Source: Dromaius novaehollandiae (taxonomy: Eukaryota). From it: a stretch of 64,000 bases of DNA. The stretch lies in NCBI RefSeq assembly GCF_036370855.1, contig NC_088128.1:356899-420898 (forward strand), given 5' to 3'. The notes beneath the pieces are model-generated. The model was not told the DNA's origin, made no database searches, and saw only the letters and a program-made list of their open reading frames with translations. Below, one piece after another: positions 1-59,040 of this stretch. Positions within the stretch are counted from its first letter, which is position 1; every line of letters starts with the position of its first letter. The position numbers and the translations under genes were made by a program.

Positions 1-1080
1 CGGGGGGGCAATTTAGGGTCCCGGGGGGGGATTTGGGGTCCCGGGGGGTATTTGGGGGGGTCGGAAGTATTTTGGGAGGGTCCTGGGGGGTATTTGGGGT
101 CCTGGGGGGGGGGATTTGGTGGTGCCGGGGGGGTGTTTGGGATCCTGGGGGGTATTTGGGGGTGCTGGGGGCTATTTTGGGGGGGGTATCAGGGTCCCAA
201 CGGGGTTATTTGGGGTGCCAGGGGGGTATTTGGGGTGAGGGGTGTATTTGGGGGGGGGGTCTCGAGGGTATTGGAGGTCCCGGGTGGTATTTGGGGTCCC
301 TGGGGGGGGCTGGGGGGTATTTGGGGGGGCCTGGGGGGTATTTGGGGGTACCGGGAGCTATTTTGGGGGGGGTATCAGGGTCCCAACGGGGTTATTTGGG
401 GTGCCAGGGGGGTATTTGGGGTGAGGGGTGTATTTGGGGGGGGGGGTCTCGAGGGTATTGGAGGTCCCGGGGGGTATTTGGGGTTCCTGGGGGGGCCTGG
501 GGGGTATCTGGGGGGGGCTGGGGGGTATTTGGGGGTACCGGGGGCTATTTTTGGGGGGGGTATCAGGGTCCCAGGGGGGTTATTTGGGGTGCCAGGGGGG
601 TATTTGGGGTGAGGGGTGTATTTGGGGGGGGTCTCGAGGGTATTGGAGGTCCCGGGGGGGTATTTGGGGTATCTGGGGGAGGCTGGGGGGTATTTGGGGG
701 CACTGGGGGCTATTTTGGGGGGGTATCAGGGGTCCCAAGGGGGTTATTTGGGGTGCCAGGGGGGTATTTGGGGTCCCGGAGGGGTATGTAGGGTGCCGGG
801 GGGGTATGTAGGGTTTGGGGGGGGGTATATGTGTGCTGGGGGGGGAATATAGGGTGCCGGGGGGGGAATATAGGGTGCCTGGGGGATATTTTGGGTGGTG
901 GTGGGGGGTGTTTGGGTCCCAGGGGGGTATTTAGAGCGCCTGGGGGGGGTATAGGGGTCCCGGGGGGGGGTATTTAGGGTGCCTTGGGGGGGTATTCTGG
1001 GTCCCTGGGGGGGATATGGGTGCTGGGGGGGGGGCTGTTTGGGTCCCAGGGGGATATAGGGGTGCTGGGGGGGGTATCCA
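1..1080. repeat. G-rich minisatellite (GGGGGGTATTTGGGGTCCC-like units, about 180-bp higher-order repeat)
   Basis: The 'gtgaggggtgtatttggggggggggtctcgagggtattggaggtcccgg' landmark recurs at 235, 415 and 600. Confidence 0.9.
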
Positions 1081-1399
1081 CAAGGGTGGGGGGGGCAGGG
1101 CAGCACCCCCCCACCCCAGGGCGCCCCGCACCCCCCCCCCGACTCACCGTGGGGCAACACCGGCTCCCGCTGCCCCCCCGGCCCCGGGGCCGCCCCTTAT
1201 CTAGGGCCTCCCCCCCCCCCCGCTGCGACCTTTCCGCCGACCCCTGGCCTTTTCGGGGGGCTAAAAATAGCCCCCCCCGCCCCCGCCGGCCCCTGACATT
1301 CAGCCGGGGGAGGGGCCCAGCCTGGGCGGCCATTTTGCCCCCCGTCCGCCATTTTGCCCCCCCCCCCCCCCACTGCCGGCAGGCTCTGGGTAACCGTGG

Positions 1400-1830
1400 A
1401 AACGGGCTAGGCCCCGTGGGGGCCTCGTTGGGGGGGTGGTTGCCATGGCGACTGAGGGGGTAGGTACAGGTCACCACGGTGACGGGGTAGTTCCCCTCCT
1501 GCGGTTTCTGGGGTGGTGGTTGCTGTGGCAACAGCCTGCGGGTGTAGGCCTTGGAGCGGGTTGACAGTCACCATGGCAACCAGCCTGCATGGAGGGGTAG
1601 GTCCCGGTTTCCATGGCAACGGGGTAGGCCTGAGACTGTTGTGACAGTCACCACGGCAACCGGGAAGGACCCTTGGTCTCCATGGCAACGGGGTAGGCCG
1701 CAAACCACTGTGACAGTCGCCACGGCAACCGGGAAGGGCCCCCTCGGTCTCCATGGTGACGGGACAGGCCCCGGTTTCCATGGCGACGGGGTTGGCCCTG
1801 AAGAACCCGGGGGGGTAATGAGGTGCCCTC
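1400..1830. repeat. About 68-bp tandem repeat carrying RFX X-box-like palindromic half-sites (CCATGGCAAC / GTTGCCATGGCGAC)
   Basis: GTTGCCATGGCGAC at 1438. GTTGCTGTGGCAAC at 1520. CCATGGCAACGGGGTAGGCC units at 1610, 1680 and 1750. Confidence 0.8.
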
Positions 1831-1840
1831 ATTAATATTC

Positions 1841-1884
1841 ATGAGCTGTTGTGTACGTCATGAATATTAATATTTCCTGCGCAT
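1841..1884. repeat. Perfect 14-bp inverted repeat ATTAATATTCATGA / TCATGAATATTAAT with a 13-bp spacer. It is the only AT-rich island in the window.
   Basis: The two arms are exact reverse complements. It lies immediately 5' of an NRF1 palindrome tgcgcatgcgca. Confidence 0.8.
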
Positions 1885-2490
1885 GCGCAGTGGCTGCGCT
1901 GCCCCCCCCTTCGCCAGCGCGGCGGCGCTGAGGTAGGACCCGGAAGCGGCCGTGCAGGTGCCATGGAAACCGCGCGTCGCGGCTTTCTATTGGCCGGGGG
2001 AAGAGGGGGGCGTGGCTCACGCTGTGGGGGGGGGGCTACTTCCGGCGAGGGCCAATCAGCGAGGCGCGCGGCGCGGCGGCGCCCCGCCTCAGGCGCCGGC
2101 CGCCTGCACCAATCACAGACCGCTGCCCTTTCGGCAGACTCTGCCTGGCAACGCGCCCGCGGCGCCGCCTTCCATTGGCTGCCACCGCGGCCAATGGGGA
2201 GGGGAGCTGCTGGCGGGGCGCCGCGCATGCGTGGAGCAGCCGGTGGCGGCGGCGGCCGTTGCCGTGGCAACGCGCGGCGCCCTCGGGGGGGCGGGGCGCG
2301 CAAGCGCATGCAAATATGGGCGAAAATATGCAAATTTATGCTGATTTATGCAAATGAATGTAAATGCGTGGAAACATCGGCGCGTGCTGACTGTATCCGC
2401 ACGGAGGACATGACCCGGCTCCCCCCCACTGACCCCGCCCCCTCCCAGTGGGGGGGGCTTACGAATGAGATGCAAATGTATGCAAATGAG
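1870..2490. promoter_or_regulatory. Dense promoter-like module with 5 CCAAT boxes, 6 octamer (ATGCAAAT) motifs, 3 NRF1 (GCGCATGCG) sites and an X-box palindrome. Target transcript unknown.
   Basis: CCAAT or ATTGG at about 1988, 2051, 2109, 2171 and 2190. ATGCAAAT at 2308, 2328, 2348, 2469 and 2479, plus ATGTAAAT at 2358. tgcgcatgcgca at 1879. gcgcatgcg at 2224. GTTGCCGTGGCAAC at 2258-2271. Confidence 0.5.
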
Positions 2491-2689
2491 GGCGGCCCGT
2501 GGGGGCGGAGCCTGGGAAAGCTCGGGGGGGCACCTGGACACCTGGGTCCCTCGTCCCTGCCTTCATGGGGGGGGCACCCCAAGCCCCTCCCCCTCAAGCC
2601 CCGCCCCCATGCTGCCAGTAGGGCTGGGATGGTATCCCCTCGTGGCCCCGCCCCCTCGTGGCCCCGCCCCCGAGGCCCCGCCCCCTCAT

Positions 2690-3990
2690 CGCTCCCCCAC
2701 CCCCACCTGATTGCAGCTCCCTCTACTCATGACCCCGCCCCCACAAAGCCCCGCCCCCACAAAGCCCCGCCCCCGGAAGCCCCGCCCCCGGAAGCCCCGC
2801 CCCCGTGAAGCCCTGCCCCTGCTGGCCCAGCCCGGCGCTGCCCCCCCCGGGGGGGAATCGCGCCCCCCCAAGCCCCGCCCCCGGCAGCCCCTCCTCCCCG
2901 GACGCCCCGCCCCCGCGAGGCCCCGCCCCAGAAGCAGCGGCAGGTGATGGCGGCCCCCCATGACCCCTCGCCCGGAAGCCCCTCCTCCCTGGAAGCCCCG
3001 CCTCCCCGGCAGCCCCTCCTCCCGGAAGCCCCGCCCCCATGAAGCCCCGCCCCCATTAAGCCCCGCCCCTGCTGGCTGCTGGCCCAGCCTGGCGCTGCCC
3101 CCCCCGGGGGGCAATTGCGCCCCCCGGCAGCCCCGCCCCCCAAGCCCCTCCTCCCCGGCAGCCCCGCCCCCATGAAGCCCCGCCCCCATGAAGCCCCGCC
3201 CCCACGTTGGTGCCGGCAGGGCGGCCCGTCGCTGCCCCCCCCCGGGGGGGGGCAATCGCGCCCCCCACAGGCCCCGCCCCCGGCCGCCCCGCCCCCGGGA
3301 AGCCCCGCCCCGGAAGCCCCCCTTCTGCGAGGCCCCGCAGAAGCGGCCCCCCCCATGACCCCTCCCCTGGCAGCCCCTCCTCCCTGGAAGCCCCACCTCC
3401 CCGGAAGCCCCGCCTCCCCGGATGCCCCGCCCCCATGAAGCCCCGCCCCCAATGAAGCCCCGCCCCCATGAAGCCCCGCCCCCATGAAGCCCCGCCTCAA
3501 CTAAGCCCCGCCCCCATTAAGCCCCGCCCCTGCTGGCTGCCGGCCCAGCCCCGTGCTGCCCCCCCCCCGGGGGGGACTCACGCCCCCCCCCAAGCCCCGC
3601 CCCCGGCAGCCCCTCCTCCCCGGCCGCCCCGCCTCCCCGGAAGCCCCGCCCCCATGAAGCCCCGCCTCCATGAAGCCCCGCCCCTGCTGGCTGCCGGCCC
3701 GGCCCGGCGCTGCCCCCCCCCCCCCCGGTGGGAATCGCCCCTCCGGATGCCGCGCCCCAATGAAGCCCCGCCCCCACTAAGCCCCGCCCCCATGAAGCCC
3801 CGCCCCCATGAAGCCCCGCCCCCACGTTGGTGCCAGCAGGGCGGCTCGTCGCTGCCCCCCCCCAGGGGGGGCAATTGCGCCCCCCACAGGCCCCGCCCCC
3901 GGCCGCCCCGCCTCCCCGGCCGCCCCGCCCCCGGGAAGCCCCGCCCCGGAAGCCCCCCTCCCGCCAGGCCCCGCCCCGGAAGCGGCGGCG
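2690..3990. repeat. GC-box minisatellite (about 14-bp unit GAAGCCCCGCCCCCAT, about 330-bp higher-order period). It holds roughly 80 or more Sp1-type CCCCGCCCC motifs immediately upstream of the TLCD3B ATG.
   Basis: Repeated ccccgcccc cores. The higher-order marker gctggctgctggcccagcctggcgctgcccccccggggggcaattgcgcccc recurs at 3070, 3530, 3690 and 3830. Confidence 0.9.
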
Positions 3991-3994
3991 GGCG

Positions 3995-4131
3995 ATGGCG
4001 GCCCCCCCGGGCGCGCTGCTGGCCGGCGGCGCCGCCTTCTTCCCGGGGCTCTTCGTGGCGGCGCGCGCGGCGCTGCGGCGGCTGCCGGGGCTGCGCTGGC
4101 CCGAGCCCGACGCCGTCATCGTGGCCGCCCG
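3995..4131 (+). CDS. TLCD3B: TLC-domain protein (FAM57/TLCD3 family), coding exon 1: MAAPPGALLAGGAAFFPGLFVAARAALRRLPGLRWPEPDAVIVAA-R(split codon). Donor GTAACG at 4132.
   Basis: ATG at 3995 in GC-rich context. The N-terminus matches my recollection of the FAM57 motif 'GGALFFPGLFA...R'. The exon ends CG|gtaacg (phase 2), and the first G of exon 2 completes Arg. It lies downstream of a GC-box array promoter. Confidence 0.7.
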
Positions 4132-4139
4132 GTAACGGC

Positions 4140-6540
4140 GGGGGGGGCGGACACCGGGGGGGGGGGGACACCGGGGGGGGGGACACCGGCGGGGGGGGGA
4201 CAGTGAGGGGACAGCGAGGGGACAGCGGGGATGGGGACAGTGAGGGGACAATGAGGGGACAGTGAAGGGACACCGGGGATGGGGACAGTGAGGGGACATT
4301 GACACCATGGGGACAGCGAGGGGTCACTGAGGGGACACTGAGGGGACACCGGGGGGGGACAGCGGGGATGGGGACAGTGAGGGGACAATGAGGGGACAGC
4401 GAGGGGACACCGGGGGGGGACAGTGAGGAGACAGCGAGGGGACAGCGGGGACGGCGAGGGGACAGTGAGGGGACAGTGAGGGGACAGCGAGGACACCAAG
4501 GGGACAGGGACGGGGATGGGGACAATGAGGGGACATTGACACCATGGAGACAGGGACAACGAGGGGACACCGGGGATGGGGACAGTGAGGGGACATTGAG
4601 GGGACAGTGAGGGGACACCGGGGGGGGGACACTGAGGGGACAGCGAGGGGACAGCGGGGATGGGGACAGTGAGGGGACACCGGGGATGGGGACAGTGAGG
4701 AGACAGCGAGGGGACAGCGAGGGGACAGCGGGGGGACATTGACACCAAGGGGACAGCGAGGGGACACCAGGGATGGGGACAGTGAGGGGACAGTGAGGGG
4801 ACACTGAGGGGACAGTGAGGGGACACCGGGAGGGGGGACAGCGAGGGGACACCGGGGATGGGGACAGTGAGGGGACAGTGAAGGGACAGCGAGGACACCA
4901 AGGGGACAGGGACGGGGATGGGGACAATGAGGGGACGTTGACACCATGGAGACAGGGACAACGAGGGGACACCGGGGATGGGGACAGTGAGGGGATAATG
5001 AGGGGACAGTGAGGGGACACCGGGAGGGGGGACAGTGAGGGGACAGGGATGGGGACAACGAGGGGACATTGACACCATGGGGACAGGGGCAACAAGGGGA
5101 CACCGGGGACAGAAAGGGGACAGTGAGGGGACACCAGGAGGGGGGACAGCGAGGGGACACTGGGGATGGGGACAGTGAGGGGACAGCGAGGGGACACCAG
5201 GGATGGGGACAGCGAGGGGACAGCGAGGGGACAGTGAGGGGACAGTGAGGGGACACCAGGGACAGTGAGGGGACAACGAGGGGACATTGACACCATGGGG
5301 ACGGGGACAACGAGGGGACACTGGGGACGGTGAGGGGACACCGGGGATGGGGACAGTGAGCAGACACCGGGGGGGGACACTGGGGACAATGAGGGGACAC
5401 CATGGGGATGGGGACAATGAGGGGACACTGAGGGGACGAGGGAGCATTGACACCATGGGGACAGGGACAACGAGGGGACACCGGGGATGGGGACAATGAG
5501 GGGACAGGGACGGTGAGGGGACAACAAGGGGACACCGGGGACAGTGAGGGGACACCGGGGGGGGTCACCAGGGACACCATGGGGACGGGGGCGGTGTGGG
5601 GACAACGAGGGGACACCGGGGACACTATGAGGACGGGGATGGGGACACGAAGGGGATGGGGACACTGTGGGGACAATGAGGGGACGACAGGGACACCGTG
5701 GGGATGGGGATGGTGTGGGGACAACAAGGGGACAGGGACACCAAGGGGACGTTGACACCATGGGGACGGGGATGGGGACAATGAGGGGACATTGATACCA
5801 TGGGGACAGGGACGGGGACAACGAGGGGACGGGGACAACGCGAGGACAGGGACATCCTCGGGACAGGGACGCCATGGGGACAGGGACAACGGGGACATGG
5901 GGACATCATGGGGACAGGGACACCACAGGGATGGGGACAGGGACAATGAGGGGACAGGGCCACTGTGGGGACAGGGACAGCATGGGGATGGGGACAGGGA
6001 CGGGGACAACAAGGGGACAGGGACATCATGGGGATGGGGACAACAAGGGGATGGGGACGGGGACCCCATGGGGATGGGGACAACGAGGGGACAGGGATGG
6101 GGACACCGTGGCGACGGGGACACCCTGGGGTTGGGGACACCTTGGGGACAGGGATGGCAGCAGCCGGGGGGGGGACGGGGCGGCTGCCGGTGGCCTTGTC
6201 CCCCCGTGTCCCCTCCTGTCCCCTGTGTCCCCTCCTGCCCCCGGCGTCCCCATCCCCCGCTGTCCTTTGACATCGATGTCCCCGACGTCCCTTGGTGTCC
6301 TCGTCCCTGTCCCTAGATGTCCACCCCCGTGTCCCGGGTGTCCCCAGCGTCACCGGCCTTGATGTCCCCATCCTTGTCCCCATCCCTGATGTCCCCAATG
6401 TCCCCAACGTCCGTGTCTGTGTCCCTTTGTGTCCCCAACGTCCGTGTCCCTCAGTGTCCCCGGTGTCCCCGAGGTCCCTGTCCCCGTCCCCGGTGTCCCC
6501 GGTGTCCCCCGCCCCCCCTGACGTCCCCAATGTCCCCCCC
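4140..6540. repeat. (GGGGACAGTGA / GGGGACACCGG)n minisatellite filling TLCD3B intron 1. The orientation flips at about 6170-6190 to (TGTCCCC)n, which forms the polypyrimidine tract of the exon 2 acceptor.
   Basis: Direct reading of the sequence. The six-frame 'ORFs' of 765 and 649 aa on the minus strand here are repeat translations. Confidence 0.9.
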
Positions 6541-6544
6541 CCAG

Positions 6545-6628
6545 GCTGGTGTCCTCGGTGCAGGCCATCATGGCCTCCACGGCCGGTTACATCATCTCCA
6601 GCTCCTGCCACCACGTCATCGATGACCA
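6545..6628 (+). CDS. TLCD3B: TLCD3-family coding exon 2: (R)LVSSVQAIMASTAGYIISSSCHHVIDD-Q(split)
   Basis: Acceptor ccccccccag|G at 6543-6544, preceded by a long (TGTCCCC)n pyrimidine tract. Donor CA|gtgagt at 6629. Phase is consistent with exons 1 and 3. Resembles FAM57 '[28 protein letters not shown]'. Confidence 0.7.
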
Positions 6629-6639
6629 GTGAGTCACCG

Positions 6640-8800
6640 GGGGGGACACCGGGGCCTGGGGGGGACACCGGGACCCATAGGTGCCACCACGAGCCATGGG
6701 TGTCACCAGGACCCGTAGGTGTCACCGGGACCCATAGGTGCCACCACGAGCCATGGGTGTCACCAGGACCCGTAGGTGTCACCGGGACCCATAGGTGCCA
6801 CCACGAGCCATAGGTGTCACCGGGACCCGCAGGTGTCACCAGGACCCATAGATGCCACCATGAGCCATGGGTGTCACCGGGACCCATAGGTGTCACCGGG
6901 ACCTGGGGGTGTCACCGGGACCCATAGGTGTCACCATGACTTGTGGGTGTCACTGGGACCCATAGATGCCTCCATGACCCCTGGGTGCCACCGGGACCCA
7001 TAGATGCCACCATGACCCATGGGTGTCACCATGACCCATAGATGCCACCATGACTTGTGGGTGTCACTGAGACCCATAGATGCCACCAAGACCTGTGGGT
7101 GCCACCAGGACCCATAGATGCCACCATGAGCCACGGGTGTCACCAGGACCCATAGGTGCCACCGGGACCCATAGGTGCCACCAGGACCCATGGGTGCTGC
7201 TAAGACCAACAGGGCACCCCGTCCTGCCCCATAGCACCCATAGGGCCCCATAGGACCCCGGTCCTGCCCCATAGCACCTATAGGGCACCCACAGGGTCCC
7301 AGCCCTGCCCCATAGCACCCATAGGGTCCCAGTCCTGCCCCATAGCACCCATAGGGCCCCATAGGACCCCGGTCCTGCCCCATAGCACCTATAGGGCACC
7401 CACAGGGTCCCAGTCCTGCCCCATAGCACCCACAGGACCCCGGTCCTGCCCCATAGCACCCATAGGACCCCGGTCCTGCCCCATAGCACCTATAGGGCCC
7501 TGCCCTGCCCCATAGCACCCATAGGGCCCCATAGGGCACCCAGCCCTTCCCCATAGCACCCATAGGACCCCGGTCCGGCCCCATAGCACCCATAGGACGC
7601 CAGTCCTGCCCTATAGCACCCATAGGGTCCCAGTCCTGCCCCATAGCACCCAAAGGCCCCATAGAGCACCCTGCCCTGCCCCATAGCACCCACAGGACTC
7701 CCAGCCCTGCCCCATAGCACCCACAGGGCCCCATAGGGCACCCAGTCCTGCCCCGTAGCACCCATAGGGCCCCGGTCCTGCCCCATAGCACCCATAGGGC
7801 CCCGGTCTTGCCCCATAGCACCCAAAGGCCCCATAGAGCACCCAGTCCGGCCCCATAGCACCCATAGGGCCCCCACAGGGTCCCTGCCCCCCCCCCCCGT
7901 CCCCGGCGCCGGCCGCGGTTCAGCACTGGACAGCGCCCGGACGCCTGGGCCCTTCCGAGCGGGGGGAGGGGCAGCGCCCGGACGCCTGGGCCCCGGGAGC
8001 GGCGGCGGCGGGAGGGGGAAGGGCAGCGCCCGGACGCCTGGGCCCCCCTCGGCCTTGCCCTTGGCGGGGATTAGCCCGGCTCGCCCGGACGCCTGGGCCC
8101 TTCCGAGCAGGGGGGAGGGGCAGCGCCCGGACGCCTGGGCTCTTGGAGCGGGGGGAGGGGCAGCGCCCGGACGCCTGGGCCCCCTCGGCCCTGCCCTTGG
8201 CGGGGATTTAGCCCTGAGCAGATGGGGATTAGCCCGGCCCCCCGCCCCCCCCCCCGGACGCCTGGGCCCTTGGCGGGGGCGGTGGGGGGAAGGGGGGGGG
8301 GGGGCCGGACACCTGGGCCCTCTCAGCCTTTTGCCCTTGAGCGGGGGAGGGGATTAGCCTGGCTCCGCCGGACGCCTGGGCCCATGGAACGGGGGAGGGG
8401 CAGCGCCCGGACGCCTGGGCCCCTCCTGGACACCTGGGCCCCTTGGGAGGGGGAGGGGAGCTGCCCGGACACCTGGGCCCCTTCCGGACACCTGGGCCCC
8501 CCGGGAGGGGGAGGGGAGCTGCCCAGACGCCTGGGCCCCACCTGGACATCGGGCCCCTCCCGGACACCTGGGCCCCCCCAGATGCCTCTCCCCCACCCGG
8601 ACGCCTGGGCCCCGCCCGGACACCTGGACCCCCTGGGAGGGGGAGGGGAGGGGCCGCCCGGACGCCTGGGCCCTTCAGGATCATCCAGATCATAGAGTGA
8701 AATTGGGGAGGGGGGATGGGACCACCTGGACGCCTGGGCCCCTTCTGGCCACCTGGGCCCCTCCCGGACACCTGGGCCCTCCCGGACGCCTGGGCCCTCC
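6640..8800. repeat. Consecutive minisatellites in TLCD3B intron 2: (GGTGTCACCGGGACCCATAG)n, (CCCCATAGCACCCATAGGGCCCCGGTCCTG)n, (CAGCGCCCGGACGCCTGGGCCC...)n
   Basis: Direct reading of the sequence. Confidence 0.9.
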
Positions 8801-8843: not shown

Positions 8844-9063
8844 GCATTGGCTGGCGGGCGCCTACCCGGCCTTCGCGGTGCCCTACTTCGTCTACGACGT
8901 CTACGCCATGTTCCTCTGCCACTGGCACCGGGGCCGCGTCAAGGGCCACGAGGCCGGGCCACCGCCCTCGCTGCGGGCCGCCGCCGCCGCCTACCTCCGC
9001 AAGGACCTGCTCATGGTGCTCCACCACGCCGCCATGGTGCTCGTCTGCTTCCCCGTGGCCGCC
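8844..9063 (+). CDS. TLCD3B: TLCD3-family coding exon 3 (TLC domain core): (Q)HWLAGAYPAFAVPYFVYDVYAMFLCHWHRGRVKGHEAGPPPSLRAAAAAYLRKDLLMVLHHAAMVLVCFPVAA
   Basis: Acceptor cgcgcag|G at 8842-8843. Donor GCC|gtgagt at 9064. Conserved TLC-domain motifs are present (YDxYAM, HW, LxxHHAxxL). Confidence 0.8.
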
Positions 9064-10790
9064 GTGAGTGGGGACGGGGCGCGGGGACACGTTGGGGACG
9101 TGGGAACGGCTTGGGGACATGGGGACGTCTTGGGGACGTGGGATGGGGGGCCACCACCATGGGGGAGAGGTTCTCATGGTGGCTGCCATGGTTCCCGTTG
9201 GCCATCATGAGTGGGGACAGGGCTTGGGGACACCTTGGGGACATGGGGACATCTTGGGGACGTGGGATGGGGGGCCACCACCTTGGCGGAGATGTTCCCG
9301 TGGTGGCCGCCATGGTGGTTGTCTACTTCTCTTTGGCCACTATGAGTGGGGACAGGGCTTGGGGACACCTTGGGGACATGGAAATGGCCTGGGGACATTT
9401 GGAACATCTTGGGGACGTGGGATGGGGGGCCACCACCATGGGGGAGATGTTCTCGTGGGGGCCGCCATGGTGCTCATCTGCTTCCCTGTGGCCGCCGTGA
9501 GTGGGGACGGGGCTTGGGGACACGTTGGGGACGTGGGAACGGCTTGGGGACATGGGGACGTCTTGGGGACGTGGGATGGGGGGCCACCACCATGACGGAG
9601 ATGTTCTCGTGGGGGCCGCCATGGTGGTTGTCTACTTCTCTTTGGCCATCATGAGTGGGGACAGGGCTTGGGGACACCTTGGGGACGTGGAAACGGCTTG
9701 GGGACATGGGGACGTCTTGGGGACGTGGGATGGGGGGCCACCACCATGGGGGAGAGGTTCTCGTGGTGGCCGCCATGGTGCTCGTCTGCTTCCCCGTGGC
9801 TGCCGTGAGTGGGGACGGGGCTTGGGGACACGTTGGGGACGTGGAAGTGGCTTGGGGACATTGGGAACGTCTTGGGGACGTGGGATGGGGGGCCACCACC
9901 ATGGGGGAGAGGTTCTCATGGTGGCCGCCATGGTTCTCCTTTGGCCACTATGAGTGGGGACAGGGCTTGGGGACACCTTGGGGACATGGGGACGTCTTGG
10001 GGACGTGGGATGGGGGGCCACCACCTTGGCGGGGAGGTTCTCGTGGTGGCCACCATGGTGGTTGTCTACTTCTCTTTGGCCATCATGAGTGGGGACAGGG
10101 CTTGGGGACATCTTGGGGACGTGGAAATGGCTTGGGGACATTGGAACGTCTTGGGGACATGGGATGGGGGCCACCACCTTGGCCGGGAGGTTCTCATGGT
10201 GGCCGCCATGGTGCTCATCTGCTTCCCCGTGGCCGCCGTGAGTGGGGACGGGGCGCGGGGACACGTTGGGGACATGGAAACAGCCTGGGGACATGGGGAC
10301 GTCTTGGGGACACCAAGATGGCTCAGGGGTGGAGGAACGTCTTGGGGACGTGGGATGGGGGGCCACCACCATGGGGGAGATGTTCCCATGGTGGCTGCCA
10401 TGGTTCTCCTTTGGCCACTATGAGTGGGGACGGGGCTTGGGGACACCTTGGGGACATGGAAACGGCTTGGGGACATGGGGATGTCTTGGTGACATGGGAT
10501 GGGGGGCCACCACCATGGGGGAGAGGTTCTCATGGTGGCCGCCATGGTGGTTGTCTACGTCTCTTTGGCTGCCGTGAGTGGGGACGGGGCTTGGGGACAC
10601 CTTGGGGACATGGAAATGGCTTGGGGACATGGGGACGTCTTGGGGACATGGGATGGGGGGCCACCACCATGGCGGAGATGTTCCCATGGTGGCCACCACG
10701 GTTCCCCTTGGCCACCACGAGTGGGGACAGGGATCGGGGCCACCGTGGGGGTTGGGGCCCCCCCGGGTTGGCCCCCCCGGGCCCTCGTGT
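9064..10790. repeat. Array with about 140-bp unit and about 425-bp higher-order repeat in TLCD3B intron 3. Each higher-order copy contains a copy of the last 40 or so nt of exon 3 plus its GTGAGT donor.
   Basis: 'gccgccatggtgctcatctgcttcccYgtggcYgccgtgagtggggacgggg' at 9455-9500, 9765-9812 and 10197-10245. Degenerate copies (ATGAGT) at 9215, 9340, 9645 and 10075. Confidence 0.85.
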
Positions 10791-10832: not shown

Positions 10833-10928
10833 CTGTGGCGCCAGGGCAAGGGCGACTTCTTCCTGGGCTGCCTGCTCATGGCGGAGCTCAGCACCCCCTT
10901 CGTCTGCCTCGGCAAGGTGCTCGTCCTG
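10833..10928 (+). CDS. TLCD3B: TLCD3-family coding exon 4: LWRQGKGDFFLGCLLMAELSTPFVCLGKVLVL
   Basis: Acceptor ccccag|CTG at 10831-10832. Donor CTG|gtgagc at 10929. Phase 0 to 0. Conserved 'GDFFxGC...AELSTPFVxLG' motif. Confidence 0.8.
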
Positions 10929-11971: not shown

Positions 11972-12256
<285 letters not shown>

Positions 12257-12289
12257 CGGCGGGGGGGGGCGGGGGGCACCCTTGGGTGC

Positions 12290-15289: not shown

Positions 15290-16150
15290 GACTGCGCCTG
15301 CGCGCGCCCCCCCTTCCCCCACCACAGCCAGTGCGCATGCGCGTTCTCCTCCTCGGCCCCCCCCCCGCACTCCCGCCGCGGCTACCGCGCCTGCGCGCTC
15401 TCCTTCCACCCCCCCCCCACAAGGCTGCCGCGCCTGCGCTCTCTCCCCAACCCCCCCCCCCCGCCGCCGAGGCTACTGCGCCTGCGCGCTCCCTTTCTTC
15501 CCCCCCCCCGCGGCTACCGCGCCTGCGCGCTCTCCTTCCACCCCCCCCCACAAGGCTGCCGCGCCTGCGCTCTCTCCCCAACCCCCCCCCCCGCCGCCGA
15601 GGCTACTGCGCCTGCGCGCTCCCTTTCTTCCCCCCCCCCGCGGCTACCGCGCCTGCGCGCTCTCCTTCCACCCCCCCCACAAGGCTGCCGCGCCTGCGCT
15701 CTCTCCCCAACCCCCCCCCGCCGCGGCTACTGCGCCTGCGCGCTCCCTTTCTTTCCCCCCCCCCGCGGCTACCGCGCCTGCGCGCTCCCTTCTCCCCTCA
15801 CAACCCCCCCCGCGGCTACTGCGCATGCGCGCTCCCCTTCTCCCCCCTCCCGCCTCGGCTACTGTGCTTGTACGTCCCCCCCCCCCCGCCGCGGCTACTG
15901 CGCCTGCGCGCTCCCCTTCTCCCCCCCCCCCCCCCCCGGCCGCGGCTACCGCCCCTGCGCGCTCTCCCTTCGACTCCCCCCCCCCCCGCGCCGCGGCTAC
16001 CGCGCATGCGCGCTCCTCTTCCACCCCCCCCCCGGCTGGGTCTACTGCGCATGCGCGCTCCCCCTTCTCTCCCCTCCCCGCCGCGGCTACTGCGCATGCG
16101 CCCTCTTCCCCCCCCCCCCCCCGCGGCTACTGCGCCTGCGCCAGACATCC
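15290..16150. repeat. About 47-60-bp minisatellite in an MVP intron carrying NRF1-type GCGCATGCGC / GCGCCTGCGC palindromes
   Basis: 'cgcggctactgcgcatgcgcgctcc' at 15826, 16000, 16046 and 16093. ctgcgcctgcgcgctc variants throughout. Confidence 0.85.
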
Positions 16151-57589: not shown

Positions 57590-59040
57590 ACCCAAATCTG
57601 GGTGTTTTTGCCTCAGGGTGACGCCCAGCGGGTGCCACCTCCCCGTCAGCCATTTTGTCCTCCTCAAATCTGGGTGTTTTCACCTCAGGTTGACGCCCAG
57701 TGGGTGCTGCCACCCATCACCCTTCGTTTCCCACCCAAATCTGGATATTTTTGCTTCAGGGTGCCACCCAGCGGGTGCCACCGCCCCATCAGCCATTTTG
57801 TCCCCTCAAAGCTGGGTGTTTTTACCTCAGGGTGACGCCCAGCGGGTGCCACCACCCCGTCAGCCATTTTGTTTCGCTCAAATCTGGGTGTTTTCACTTC
57901 AGGGTGACGCCCAGTGGGTGTTACCACCCCATCAGCCATTTTGTCTCCTCAGATCTGAGTGTTTTTGTCTCAGGGTGACACCCAGTTGGTGCCACCACCC
58001 TGTCAGCCATTTTGTCCCCCTTAAATCTGGGTGTTTTTACCTCAGGACGACACCCAGTGGGTGCTGCCACCCATCACCCTTCGTTTCCCCCCAAATCCAG
58101 GCTGTTTTCACCTCAGAGTGACACCCAGTGGGTGCCACCACCCTGTCAGCCATTTTGTCCCCCCAAATCTGTGCTTTTTCCACCCCGTCAGCCATTTTGT
58201 CCCCCTCAAATCTAGGTGTTTTCATCTCAGGGTGACACCCAGTGGGTGCTGCCACCCATCACCCTTCGTTTCCCATTTGAATCTGGGTGTTTTCACCTCA
58301 GGGTGACGCCCAGCGGGTGCCACCACCCTGTCAGCCATTTTGTCCCCCTCAAATCTGGGTGTTTTTACCTCAGGGTGACACCCAGCAGGTGCCACCACCC
58401 CATCAGCCATTTTGTCCCCCCAACCCGCACGTTTTCCACCCCGTCGGCCATTTTGTCCCCCCAAATCTGTGCGTTTTCCACCCTATCGGCCATTTTGTCC
58501 CCCAAACCCACACGTTTTCCACCCCGTCGGCCATTTTGTCCCCCAAACCTGTGTGTTTTCACCCCATCAGCCATTTTGTCCCCCAAACCCACACGTTTTC
58601 CACCCTGTCAGCCATTTTGTCCCCCAAATCCGTGCTTTTTCCACCCTGTCGGCCATTTTGTCCCCCAAACCTGCGCATTTTCCACCCCGTCGGCCATTTT
58701 GTCCCCCAAACCTGCGCATTTTCCACCCCGTCAGCCATTTTGTCCCCCCAACCCGCACGTTTTCCACCCCGTTGGCCATTTTGTCCCCCAAACCCACATG
58801 TTTTCCACCCTGTCAGCCATTGTGTCCCCCCAAACCCGTGCGTTTCTGCCCCGGGTGACCCCACAGCAGGTGCCACCATCTTGTCAGCCATTTTGTCCCC
58901 CAAATCCGTGCTTTTTCCACCCTGTCAACCATTTTGTCCCCCCAACCCGTGCGTTTTCCACCCCATCAGCCATTTGTCCCCCCAACCCACACGTTTTCCA
59001 CCCTGTCGGCCATTTTGTCCCCCAAACCCGCGCGTTCCCA
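57590..59040. repeat. About 59/118-bp minisatellite in KIF22 intron 4. Units carry CAGCCATTTTGTCC (YY1-like core) and acceptor-like TGTTTTTACCTCAG|GGTGAC.
   Basis: Direct reading. About 12 copies of 'atctgggtgtttt(t/c)acctcagggtgacgcccag'. Later copies read 'ccgtcggccattttgtcccccaaacc'. Confidence 0.9.

Follow-up and report, generated by a model that had tools for sequence, protein, structure and literature searches.

A probable CpG-island control region between the divergent ALDOA and TLCD3B genes of birds

The motif cluster at 1830-2490 of a 64-kb stretch of DNA from Dromaius novaehollandiae (the window, hereafter) raises the question of which gene it serves. The original prediction described it as an orphan, promoter-like module, with a motif density typical of histone H2B or snRNA promoters and with TLCD3B or an unannotated non-coding transcript as possible target. 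Each motif named there was located in the sequence, and the module is, with good though not full confidence, a conserved CpG-island control region between the divergent genes ALDOA, on the minus strand, and TLCD3B, on the plus strand. Its role is best read as that of an ordinary CpG-island promoter or upstream element, which would serve TLCD3B and possibly also ALDOA.

The window is bird DNA in synteny with human 16p11.2. Exon 1 of TLCD3B was placed on the plus strand at 3995-4133 (ATG at 3995, donor at about 4133) and the later exons at 6546-6629, 8845-9060, 10833-10925 and 11990-12260, by tblastn with a human TLCD3B sequence as the query. The assembled protein is 86-87% identical to bird ceramide synthase/TLCD3B in near-full-length matches (E = 1e-146) and 91% identical to partial duck and tinamou models, with 82-92% identity overall to the bird proteins found. 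TLCD3B is a ceramide-synthase-like gene, presumably enriched in brain and retina. In the crane (L001) and falcon (L002) loci, the immediate neighbour upstream of TLCD3B encodes, on the opposite strand, an aldolase (PF00274) with a higher score for ALDOA than for ALDOC; PPP4C lies beyond it in the falcon. Alignment of the window with both birds (alignment A2) locates the ALDOA muscle-type promoter and its short non-coding first exon at 1141-1290 on the minus strand, with a donor, CCACG/GTGAGT, at 1141-1150 and with a TATA-like CCCTAGATAAGGGG at about 1193-1206 and a MEF2-like GCTATTTTTAGC at about 1259-1270, both named from consensus matches. A G-rich tandem repeat of 20-bp/186-bp units (1-1080, minus strand; TRF) occupies the ALDOA intron downstream of this exon, and a similar repeat stands at the equivalent place in the crane (7760-8200) and falcon (8230-8680), between the muscle-type exon and the proximal promoter. 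Since ALDOA lies upstream of TLCD3B on the other strand and its muscle-type exon aligns at 1141-1290, the module sits in a divergent intergenic spacer, about 650-1100 bp upstream of the ALDOA muscle-type promoter, with the two genes transcribed in diverging directions; the word orphan was thus wrong. From that promoter to the TLCD3B ATG, the spacer measures about 1.7 kb in the crane and 1.25 kb in the falcon.

The composition of the module is that of a CpG island. Between 1875 and 2305 the GC content is 0.77 and the CpG observed/expected ratio 0.99, against island thresholds of 55% and 0.6, and the ratio in the flanks is 0.3-0.6; a canonical TATA box (TATAAA/TATATA) was not found in the module. 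Tandem repeats masked by TRF cover 83% of the window, local amplification inflates motif counts (the 10-bp period of the octamers, the X-box and GC-box minisatellites), and other motif-bearing arrays occur at 15.3-16.1 kb (NRF1 sites) and 57.6-59 kb (YY1-like sites), all of which would suit a functionless artefact, due to chance or to repeats, of a microchromosome rich in GC and laden with repeats. The module core is nevertheless non-repetitive, the block 1771-2410 being among the two largest non-repeat blocks of the window. The octamer ATGCAAAT occurs five times in the 64 kb, always within the same 180 bp (2308-2487), with 0.32 copies expected, and none of 100 dinucleotide shuffles of the whole window reached five. 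Sites within one mismatch of the MORE-type POU palindrome number two in the window, both in the arms of the inverted repeat described below, where 0.07 would be expected; neither this count nor that of the octamers was reproduced by the shuffles. The five-CCAAT cluster has a Poisson probability of 2.5e-5 per window, and 210-bp windows with at least five CCAAT boxes make up 0.26%, the remaining ones lying in tandem repeats.

An artefact is further contradicted by conservation, and we give it almost no credence. BLAST matches between the window and the crane are collinear (1215-1283, 1333-1371, 1828-1847, 1952-1997, 2139-2193 and 2472-2490), and a pigeon contig carries the module elements in the same order. 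In an alignment of the window with crane, falcon and pigeon (alignment A1), CGGCAACGCGC, CCAAT, GCGC(A/G)TGCG, the X-box, the GC box and TATGCAAAT are invariant, whereas the surrounding spacer does not align. The module starts on the left with an AT-rich cluster of POU sites (1816-1871), which includes a TAATGAG/CTCATTA palindrome at 1816-1834 and is identical to the crane (9015-9034) over 1828-1847. Of the NRF1 palindromes that had been predicted, one is perfect (TGCGCATGCGCA, 1878-1889) and specific to the window lineage, falling where crane and falcon show a gap in the alignment; the other, with core GCGCATGCG at 2224 inside the NRF1-type site CGCGCATGCG (2223-2232), is partial, and reads GCGCATGCG in crane and pigeon and GCGCGTGCG in the falcon. 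At 1958-1997 an X-box half-site, GCCATGGAAAC, precedes an inverted CCAAT box, CTATTGGCC; the pair is kept in the crane (9190-9224) and the pigeon (L006, 47-82) and has an arrangement which we take to recall the X-Y module of MHC class II genes.

All five CCAAT/ATTGG boxes are present, at 1989(-), 2052(+), 2109(+), 2174(-) and 2191(+). In the pair spanning 2049-2113, the box at 2052 is common with the crane and that at 2109 falls in an insertion found in the window species only; the pair at 2174 and 2191 accompanies a conserved block, CTGCCYGGCAACGCGCCCGC (2138-2195), the former box being retained in the crane and the latter in pigeon and falcon. The RFX X-box is an inverted repeat of the form GTNRCC(0-3N)RGYAAC, and the predicted X-box palindrome, GTTGCCGTGGCAAC at 2258-2271, agrees with it, so that it represents a putative RFX site kept in four birds. 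In its longer form, CCGTTGCCGTGGCAACGCG, it is followed by a GC box, GGGGGGGCGGGG, and the whole (2255-2297) is nearly invariant in the four birds; an ETS-type CCGGAAG also occurs in the module core. The promoter-like character claimed for the cluster is therefore borne out by a CpG-rich block (observed/expected about 1.0), conserved in four birds and immediately upstream of TLCD3B.

The inverted repeat at the left edge has the perfect 14-bp arms that had been claimed, about 10 bp away from the 1841-1881 first given: ATTAATATTCATGA at 1831-1844 and TCATGAATATTAAT at 1858-1871, separated by a 13-nt loop. Folded as DNA it reaches -10.2 kcal/mol (z = -5.1). It coincides with an inverted pair of MORE-A4-like sites, ATTAATATTCAT at 1831 and ATGAATATTAAT at 1860, each matching the MORE-A4 palindrome at 11 of 12 positions. 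MORE elements are 12-bp palindromes of the form ATGCATATGCAT or ATGAATATTCAT (MORE-C4 or MORE-A4), the latter as defined in PMC4576985, where it ranks first among the ChIP motifs of Oct6, Brn1 and Brn2 and binds class IV POU factors in vitro. The arms being near-palindromic, two copies of such a site automatically appear as an inverted repeat, and the element is best read as two putative POU-dimer sites and not as a structural hairpin. A hairpin or cruciform was discarded, as the 14-bp stem exists in the window species alone and crane and falcon keep POU-like sites without the stem. MORE-like sites, none of them a perfect palindrome, number two in the window, two in the crane and three in the falcon; within these loci they occur inside the module only, and those of crane and falcon are A4, C4 and hybrid variants at equivalent places. 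Whereas the known MORE elements (Mistri et al., 2015; PMC4576985) were defined by ChIP, those of the module are predicted sites at the margin of a CpG-island promoter.

At the right edge, five of the six predicted octamers are perfect copies of ATGCAAAT (2308, 2328, 2348, 2470 and 2480) and the sixth, ATGTAAAT at 2358, is a variant. The first group (2308-2365, plus strand) comprises three ATGCAAAT, one ATGTAAAT and one ATGCTGAT, mostly with a 10-bp period; the same region holds two octamers in the other birds, with TATGCAAAT invariant, and the group is, judging from these alignments, a recent, local, lineage-specific amplification that accounts for three of the six octamers. The second group, ATGCAAATGTATGCAAATGAGGG (2470-2492, plus strand), is identical to the crane (9463-9481) over 19 bp and reads ATGTAAATGTATGCAAATGAG in the pigeon.

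Like the promoters of H2B and immunoglobulin genes and the distal element of snRNA genes, the module has several perfect octamers near CCAAT and GC boxes. In H2B and immunoglobulin promoters, however, the octamer stands beside a TATA box and a coding start, a placement that the module octamers do not share, and the module, unlike H2B and snRNA promoters, comes without an H2B gene or snRNA body and owes half of its octamers to the amplification just described. That no histone or snRNA body is recognisable nearby had been noted from the outset, and agrees with the searches. An Rfam scan of the whole 64-kb window at gathering score returned zero families, the histone 3' stem-loop included, and a permissive scan of 1-5000 for small RNAs returned only Yar_3 and whalefall-1 (E = 0.5-0.9), fly and marine-metagenome families that represent junk matches; neither scan revealed an snRNA or other small-RNA gene some 200-250 bp downstream of an octamer. 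By eye, neither a proximal sequence element at about -55 nor an SPH/ZNF143 site beside the octamer was recognised. Searches of the whole window by tblastn with H2B, H2A, H3, H4 and H1 gave nothing below E = 0.1. The open reading frames at 1963-2808(+) and 1839-2333(-) are artefacts of GC-richness, and the indels among the four birds are not multiples of three, hence there is no conserved reading frame. In the absence of an snRNA or other Rfam family, a histone gene and a conserved reading frame, the H2B/snRNA analogy fails. A transposon or LTR was likewise rejected, because the module keeps the same syntenic position in four birds.

The same searches bear on the proposal that octamers and CCAAT boxes control a short unit transcribed separately, that is, an unannotated non-coding or small RNA with its own promoter. 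The high and non-random density of both motifs speaks for it and a CpG-island signature is compatible with initiation inside the module, but no Rfam family, histone frame or conserved reading frame was found to be driven, and the short crane and falcon spacers are already filled by the module and repeats, so that we regard this proposal as improbable.

Evidence on the target comes instead from the position of the module, and TLCD3B, the candidate named at the outset, gains support from it. In the falcon the TLCD3B ATG is preceded by an octamer at 215 bp and by the right edge of the module at about 100 bp, the whole module being only about 100-550 bp away. The distance from module to start codon is about 0.1 kb in the falcon, 1.5 kb in the window species, 5 kb in a skink and 9 kb in the tiger snake, and in skink and snake TLCD3B is accompanied by a module of the same motif order. 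In capuchin and skink the ATG exon of TLCD3B is immediately preceded by a different sequence, of TTTAAG type, and no module occurs within 1.3 kb of that exon in either. No mammalian homologue was found within 10 kb upstream of this exon in the capuchin; in human, a distal TLCD3B start region lies presumably some 22 kb upstream, beyond the flank searched in the capuchin, and the module could match a distal start region which we assume, from human annotation, to be shared by ALDOA and TLCD3B. The module was not found in the cuckoo, swan and chicken loci (L003-L005), where the gene models are partial or the assembly lacks exon 1. A scan of metagenomes with the X-box pattern gave 82 matches, apparently in environmental contigs, none with a nearby octamer or NRF1 site. 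It is conceivable, if rather doubtful, that the module is an ancient sauropsid, possibly amniote, cassette (NRF1, X-box, CCAAT/GC box and octamers, with AT-rich POU flanks), held upstream of TLCD3B for an estimated >250 million years while its distance drifted; its factor sites would then be prone to minisatellite amplification on bird microchromosomes (about 11 X-boxes, 6 octamers and 39 GC boxes here).

The layout of the ALDOA side has to be weighed against this. Mammalian ALDOA reportedly has a 1.6-kb cluster of promoters, with a distal pN, a muscle-type pM and a proximal pH. The bird locus resembles the human and rodent region in its muscle promoter with TATA- and MEF2-type elements and a short non-coding exon (1141-1290) and, in crane and falcon, in a proximal promoter of AP-1/CRE/TTTAAG type further downstream in ALDOA; the module stands at the place expected of pN, a likeness judged from layout. 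It might consequently be a distal ubiquitous ALDOA promoter only, firing leftward on the minus strand, with its closeness to TLCD3B a by-product of a compact spacer. Its place 650-1100 bp upstream of the muscle-type promoter fits pN as we assume it from mammals, two YY1-like CAAAATGGCGG motifs at 1329-1356 are in ALDOA sense orientation, and in crane and falcon a GGGGCGGGG array to the left of the module has a polarity opposite to that of the GC-box array on the TLCD3B side. Between these motifs and the module the window has an X-box-like (RFX-type) minisatellite (1380-1800; about 11 units of GTYRCCATGGYRAC, period 69/80 bp), the equivalent place holding two such boxes in the crane (8664-8712) and one or two in the falcon. 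An ALDOA first exon in the module would have to be spliced, yet a positionally conserved minus-strand GTRAG donor between the module and pM was found in none of window, crane and falcon, which counts towards TLCD3B as the target. Moreover, unlike the mammalian region, the bird DNA also abuts TLCD3B: the falcon module leaves no other promoter space for that gene, and in skink and snake the module of the same order has no ALDOA called to its left (in 4.6 kb and only about 0.7 kb of sequence, respectively). A role for ALDOA only is thus unlikely, somewhat less so than a separate RNA unit.

Under the preferred reading of a control region serving chiefly TLCD3B, the core at about 1880-2300 would offer candidate sites for NF-Y (CCAAT), NRF1 (GCGCATGCG), RFX (X-boxes), Sp1 (GC box) and ETS (CCGGAAG), flanked by POU sites, the MORE-A4-like dimer sites on the left and the ATGCAAAT octamers on the right. 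Ubiquitous core factors may hold the island open and unmethylated, and the POU sites may contribute Oct-1 or neural class III/IV POU input; the factors are named from consensus matches, and their binding is predicted from sequence, as are the direction in which transcription runs and the place where it starts. TLCD3B is the most likely target, and in the compact falcon locus the module would be its proximal promoter. A GC-box minisatellite of 1.45 kb (2560-3983, plus strand), whose 39 copies of CCCCGCCCC share a single strand, has expanded between module and exon 1 in the window species, so that the module would now act from about -1.5 to -2.1 kb. Homologous arrays measure about 70 bp in the falcon, 340 bp in the crane, at least 550 bp in the pigeon and at least 1100 bp in Aegotheles, whose contig begins within the array. 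Within the minisatellite of the window, the start region of TLCD3B recurs in two decayed copies (2941 and about 3345), and ATG triplets number 21. A start upstream of it, as the original prediction had it, is unlikely for productive mRNA in this species: it implies a leader of about 1.5 kb that contains 21 upstream ATGs and lacks a GTRAG donor by which they could be spliced out; barring unusual splicing, the module could not be the core promoter of productive mRNA here. Productive initiation probably takes place in the last 180 bp or so before the TLCD3B ATG. The starts probably lie at about 1180 (-) for muscle-type ALDOA and at 3810-3990 (+) for TLCD3B, some 2.7 kb apart in the window and 1.2 kb in the falcon. 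The module may also fire or enhance leftward to ALDOA, a bidirectional behaviour suggested by the GC-box arrays of opposite polarity that flank it in crane and falcon.

Bidirectional CpG-island promoters are said to be found between head-to-head vertebrate genes. The module is like them in its divergent genes, its lack of a canonical TATA box, its CpG observed/expected ratio of about 1 and its wealth of NRF1, NF-Y, ETS, Sp1 and YY1-type motifs and, in crane and falcon, in its GC-box arrays of opposite polarity on the two sides. It differs from them in the distance to the closest mapped features, 630 bp for the ALDOA muscle-type promoter and 1.5 kb for the TLCD3B ATG in this species, in its unusually many POU sites and X-boxes, and in having transcription starts that are predicted. 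A search of the literature on ALDOA/FAM57B bidirectional, aldolase A and TLCD3B promoters found nothing specific, except that mouse Tlcd3b is listed among the proximal ATAC peaks enriched in hair cells.

The module leaves the general understanding of promoters unchanged. In annotation, the cluster should be filed as an ALDOA–TLCD3B intergenic promoter or regulatory island, and not as an orphan promoter, a promoter of histone or snRNA type or a hairpin element. For TLCD3B, it provides concrete candidate conserved sites of NF-Y, NRF1, RFX, Sp1, octamer and MORE-type POU classes. For the promoters of bird microchromosomes, it indicates that the expansion of motif-bearing minisatellites can push them kilobases away from their genes.

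The motif cluster at about 1830–2490 of the window, described in the original prediction as an orphan promoter-like module, contains every element named there: an inverted repeat with perfect 14-bp arms (1831–1844 and 1858–1871, about 10 bp lower than predicted), an NRF1 palindrome, TGCGCATGCGCA, at 1878–1889, CCAAT/ATTGG boxes at 1989(–), 2052(+), 2109(+), 2174(–) and 2191(+), an X-box, GTTGCCGTGGCAAC, at 2258, perfect octamers, ATGCAAAT, at 2308, 2328, 2348, 2470 and 2480, and an octamer variant, ATGTAAAT, at 2358. This clustering is beyond chance. All five perfect octamers of the 64 kb lie in the module (0.32 expected from dinucleotide shuffles, with five or more in 0 of 100 shuffles), 210-bp windows with five CCAAT boxes amount to 0.26%, the others all falling within tandem repeats, and only the two arms of the inverted repeat come within one mismatch of the MORE-type POU homodimer palindrome anywhere in the window (0.07 expected); that the cluster is an artefact is extremely improbable. 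Tandem repeat makes up 83% of the window (TRF masking), and among the unique blocks left after masking 1771–2410 ranks in the two largest. The remaining unique blocks, where identifiable, are exons, and those of at least 150 bp that were identified belong to TLCD3B, MVP and a KIF22-like kinesin, as exons or promoter regions.

With a human TLCD3B sequence as the tblastn query, TLCD3B was assembled from five plus-strand exons (ATG at 3995, stop at about 12260), and its protein is 86–87% identical to the near-full-length crane and falcon proteins ("ceramide synthase") and 91% identical to partial duck and tinamou models. Translated unique blocks place MVP on the minus strand (~16–46 kb) and the KIF22-like kinesin on the plus strand (~57–64 kb), and the region is syntenic with human 16p11.2. 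In the loci used for comparison, the TLCD3B regions of grey crowned crane (L001) and gyrfalcon (L002), the adjacent gene upstream of TLCD3B is a class I aldolase on the other strand, scoring higher as ALDOA than as ALDOC; in the falcon it is followed by PPP4C, as in human. Window 1141–1290 (–) can be aligned to both loci (L001 8228–8390, L002 8700–8850) and carries a TATA box (CCCTATATAAGGGG in crane and falcon, CCCTAGATAAGGGG in the window species), a MEF2-like site, GCTATTTTTRGC, and a short exon with the 3' end CCACG followed by the donor GTGAGT. Judged from these elements, it is the muscle-type first exon and promoter (pM) of ALDOA, and the G-rich repeat at 1–1080 is the intron that follows. 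In this promoter, where crane and falcon have the canonical TATATAAGG, the window species has a GATA-like TAGATAAGG. Since the ALDOA exon (–) stands opposite TLCD3B (+), the module lies in a head-to-head spacer and is not an orphan.

Within this spacer, BLAST matches between window and crane are exclusively collinear (1215–1283, 1333–1371, 1828–1847, 1952–1997, 2139–2193 and 2472–2490), with identity of 20/20 at 1828–1847 and 19/19 at 2472–2490, and the Nicobar pigeon contig, which begins within the module, has an identical order of elements. In the alignment of these four birds the invariant or nearly invariant elements are CGGCAACGCGC (2147–2157), the CCAAT box at 2191, GCGC(A/G)TGCG at 2224, the X-box CCGTTRCCGTRG..ACGCG at 2258 and the GC box after it, TATGCAAAT, and the second ATGCAAATGA(G/A)GG. 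The window lineage also has features of its own: a perfect NRF1 palindrome (1878), one CCAAT box (2109), both CCGGAAG sites and, in cluster A with its 10-bp period, three of its six octamers. The conserved, ancestral complement amounts to some three or four CCAAT boxes, a single NRF1 site, a full X-box with half-sites, and two or three octamers.

Both arms of the inverted repeat agree at 11 of 12 positions with ATGAATATTCAT, on which Brn2 and class IV POU factors homodimerise in vitro (Mistri et al., PMC4576985). MORE-like sites (A4, C4 or hybrid) number two in the crane and three in the falcon, and are confined to the module within these 23–24-kb loci. A long hairpin is predicted in the window species (–10.2 kcal/mol, z = –5.1), with none predicted in crane or falcon. 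The conserved feature is a set of near-palindromic candidate POU sites, and any near-palindrome present twice will necessarily look like an inverted repeat.

The proposed analogy with H2B- or snRNA-type promoters fails on its defining features, since a scan of the whole window against Rfam gave no match at or above a family's gathering score and no histone ORF is present. A permissive Rfam scan of 1–5000 returned two matches to irrelevant families (E = 0.5–0.9) and nothing credible, and it is very unlikely that the module serves an unannotated RNA. A conserved ORF in the module is ruled out by indels between bird species.

The description as promoter-like holds, given the CpG-island composition (CpG observed/expected of 0.99 in 1875–2305 and 1.14 in TLCD3B exon 1, against 0.3–0.6 in the flanks) and the promoter-type motif repertoire. 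The module is probably a conserved CpG-island control region between the divergent ALDOA and TLCD3B. Its grammar is that of a TATA-less CpG island with putative core sites of CCAAT (NF-Y-type), GCGCATGCG (NRF1-type), X-box (RFX-type), GC-box (Sp1-type) and CCGGAAG (ETS-type), a repertoire commonly found at CpG-island promoters of the housekeeping and bidirectional kinds; MORE-like sites at its left edge and octamers at its right edge may add input from Oct-1 or neural POU factors. TLCD3B is a likely target, as predicted: in the falcon the octamer lies 215 bp, and the module's right edge about 100 bp, from the TLCD3B ATG, with just ~70 bp of GC boxes between. The GC-box array measures ~340 bp in the crane, 550 bp or more in the pigeon, 1100 bp or more in Aegotheles and 1.45 kb in the window species, and the module is therefore seen as the ancestral proximal promoter region of TLCD3B, pushed away from the gene by a growing GC-box minisatellite. 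A TLCD3B transcript initiated in the module of the window species would have a leader of ~1.5 kb that holds 21 upstream ATGs and lacks a GTRAG donor. The likelier place for productive initiation is the last ~180 bp before the ATG, where GC skew flips sign and CpG observed/expected has a second peak; the module would then be an upstream element for TLCD3B. The module may also serve ALDOA. Its position 650–1100 bp upstream of pM fits a distal promoter resembling pN, the distal ALDOA promoter of mammals, and crane and falcon have an opposite-polarity GC-box array on the ALDOA side; no minus-strand splice donor of conserved position was found on that side. That it is a distal promoter of ALDOA only is unlikely.

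At 1380–1800 a 69/80-bp minisatellite holds about 11 X-box-like units, GTYRCCATGGYRAC; the crane has two such boxes at the matching place and the falcon one or two, so a putative conserved factor site has been amplified there. The GC-box array at 2560–3983 has a higher-order structure in which the TLCD3B start region recurs as two decayed copies, one at 2947 (ATGGCGGCCCCCC) and one at ~3340 (AAGCGGCCCCCCCCATGACCCC), which implies repeated duplication of a promoter-proximal unit. Crane and falcon carry GC-box arrays of opposite polarity on both sides of the module, GGGGCGGGG towards ALDOA and CCCCGCCCC towards TLCD3B (L001 8746–8958 and 9701–9975; L002 9288–9404 and 9940–9984), and the window species has the right-hand array alone. 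A TLCD3B intron contains a 463-bp-period repeat (9234–10702) in which the 3' end of exon 3 recurs as pseudo-copies, seen as tblastn matches at 9449–9499 and 10175–10240. Near the MVP 3' end (15333–16092), GCGCATGCGC occurs five times, two copies flanking a 130-bp-period repeat (15372–15792) and three lying just 3' at 45-bp spacing, and within the kinesin gene (57649–59009) repeats of 41 and 214 bp contain some 20 copies of a YY1-like GCCATTTTG.

In capuchin and skink, the 1.3 kb next to the TLCD3B ATG exon contain no such module. About 5 kb upstream of this exon, the skink has a motif series at L008 4640–5100 (extent 4620–5170) in the order GCGCATGCGC, GTCGCTATGGAAAC, GC box, ATTGG, ATGCAAAT by AT-rich TTAATTCATATTAAT, and ATGCAAAT, holding the sole NRF1 site, the sole two octamers and one of the two X-boxes (the other at L008 1240) of the 10 kb upstream; a donor-like GGTCTTG followed by GTGAGT comes after it, at 5158. 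A similar series in the tiger snake (L092 740–1010), ~9 kb upstream of the exon, runs TGCGCATGCGCA, GTCGCTATGGGAAC, two CCAAT boxes, GC box, ATGCAAAG, and its X-box block is 81% identical to that of the skink over 52 bp. Bird and squamate sequences do not align; the common order of elements suggests, as a lead, that the squamate series are homologous to the bird module, of which they may be a distal-promoter counterpart. In human, the most distal TLCD3B and ALDOA starts are annotated ~110 bp apart. The skink also has, 1.1 kb ahead of the main ATG exon, an alternative first coding exon of TLCD3B (L008 8780–8895; MSFKMLLFF...VYVSAR, then gtgagt), in agreement with the alternative N-termini of mammalian and alligator isoforms.

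POU4F3 and RFX factors are needed by hair cells, and by outer hair cells among them. Mouse Tlcd3b is among the proximal ATAC-seq elements enriched in these cells (PMC12528612), a weak lead for the POU and X-box content of the bird module. As an example of a familiar class of element, the module is new and undescribed, and it is mildly notable for its dense POU/MORE and RFX content and for the amplification of binding sites by minisatellites.
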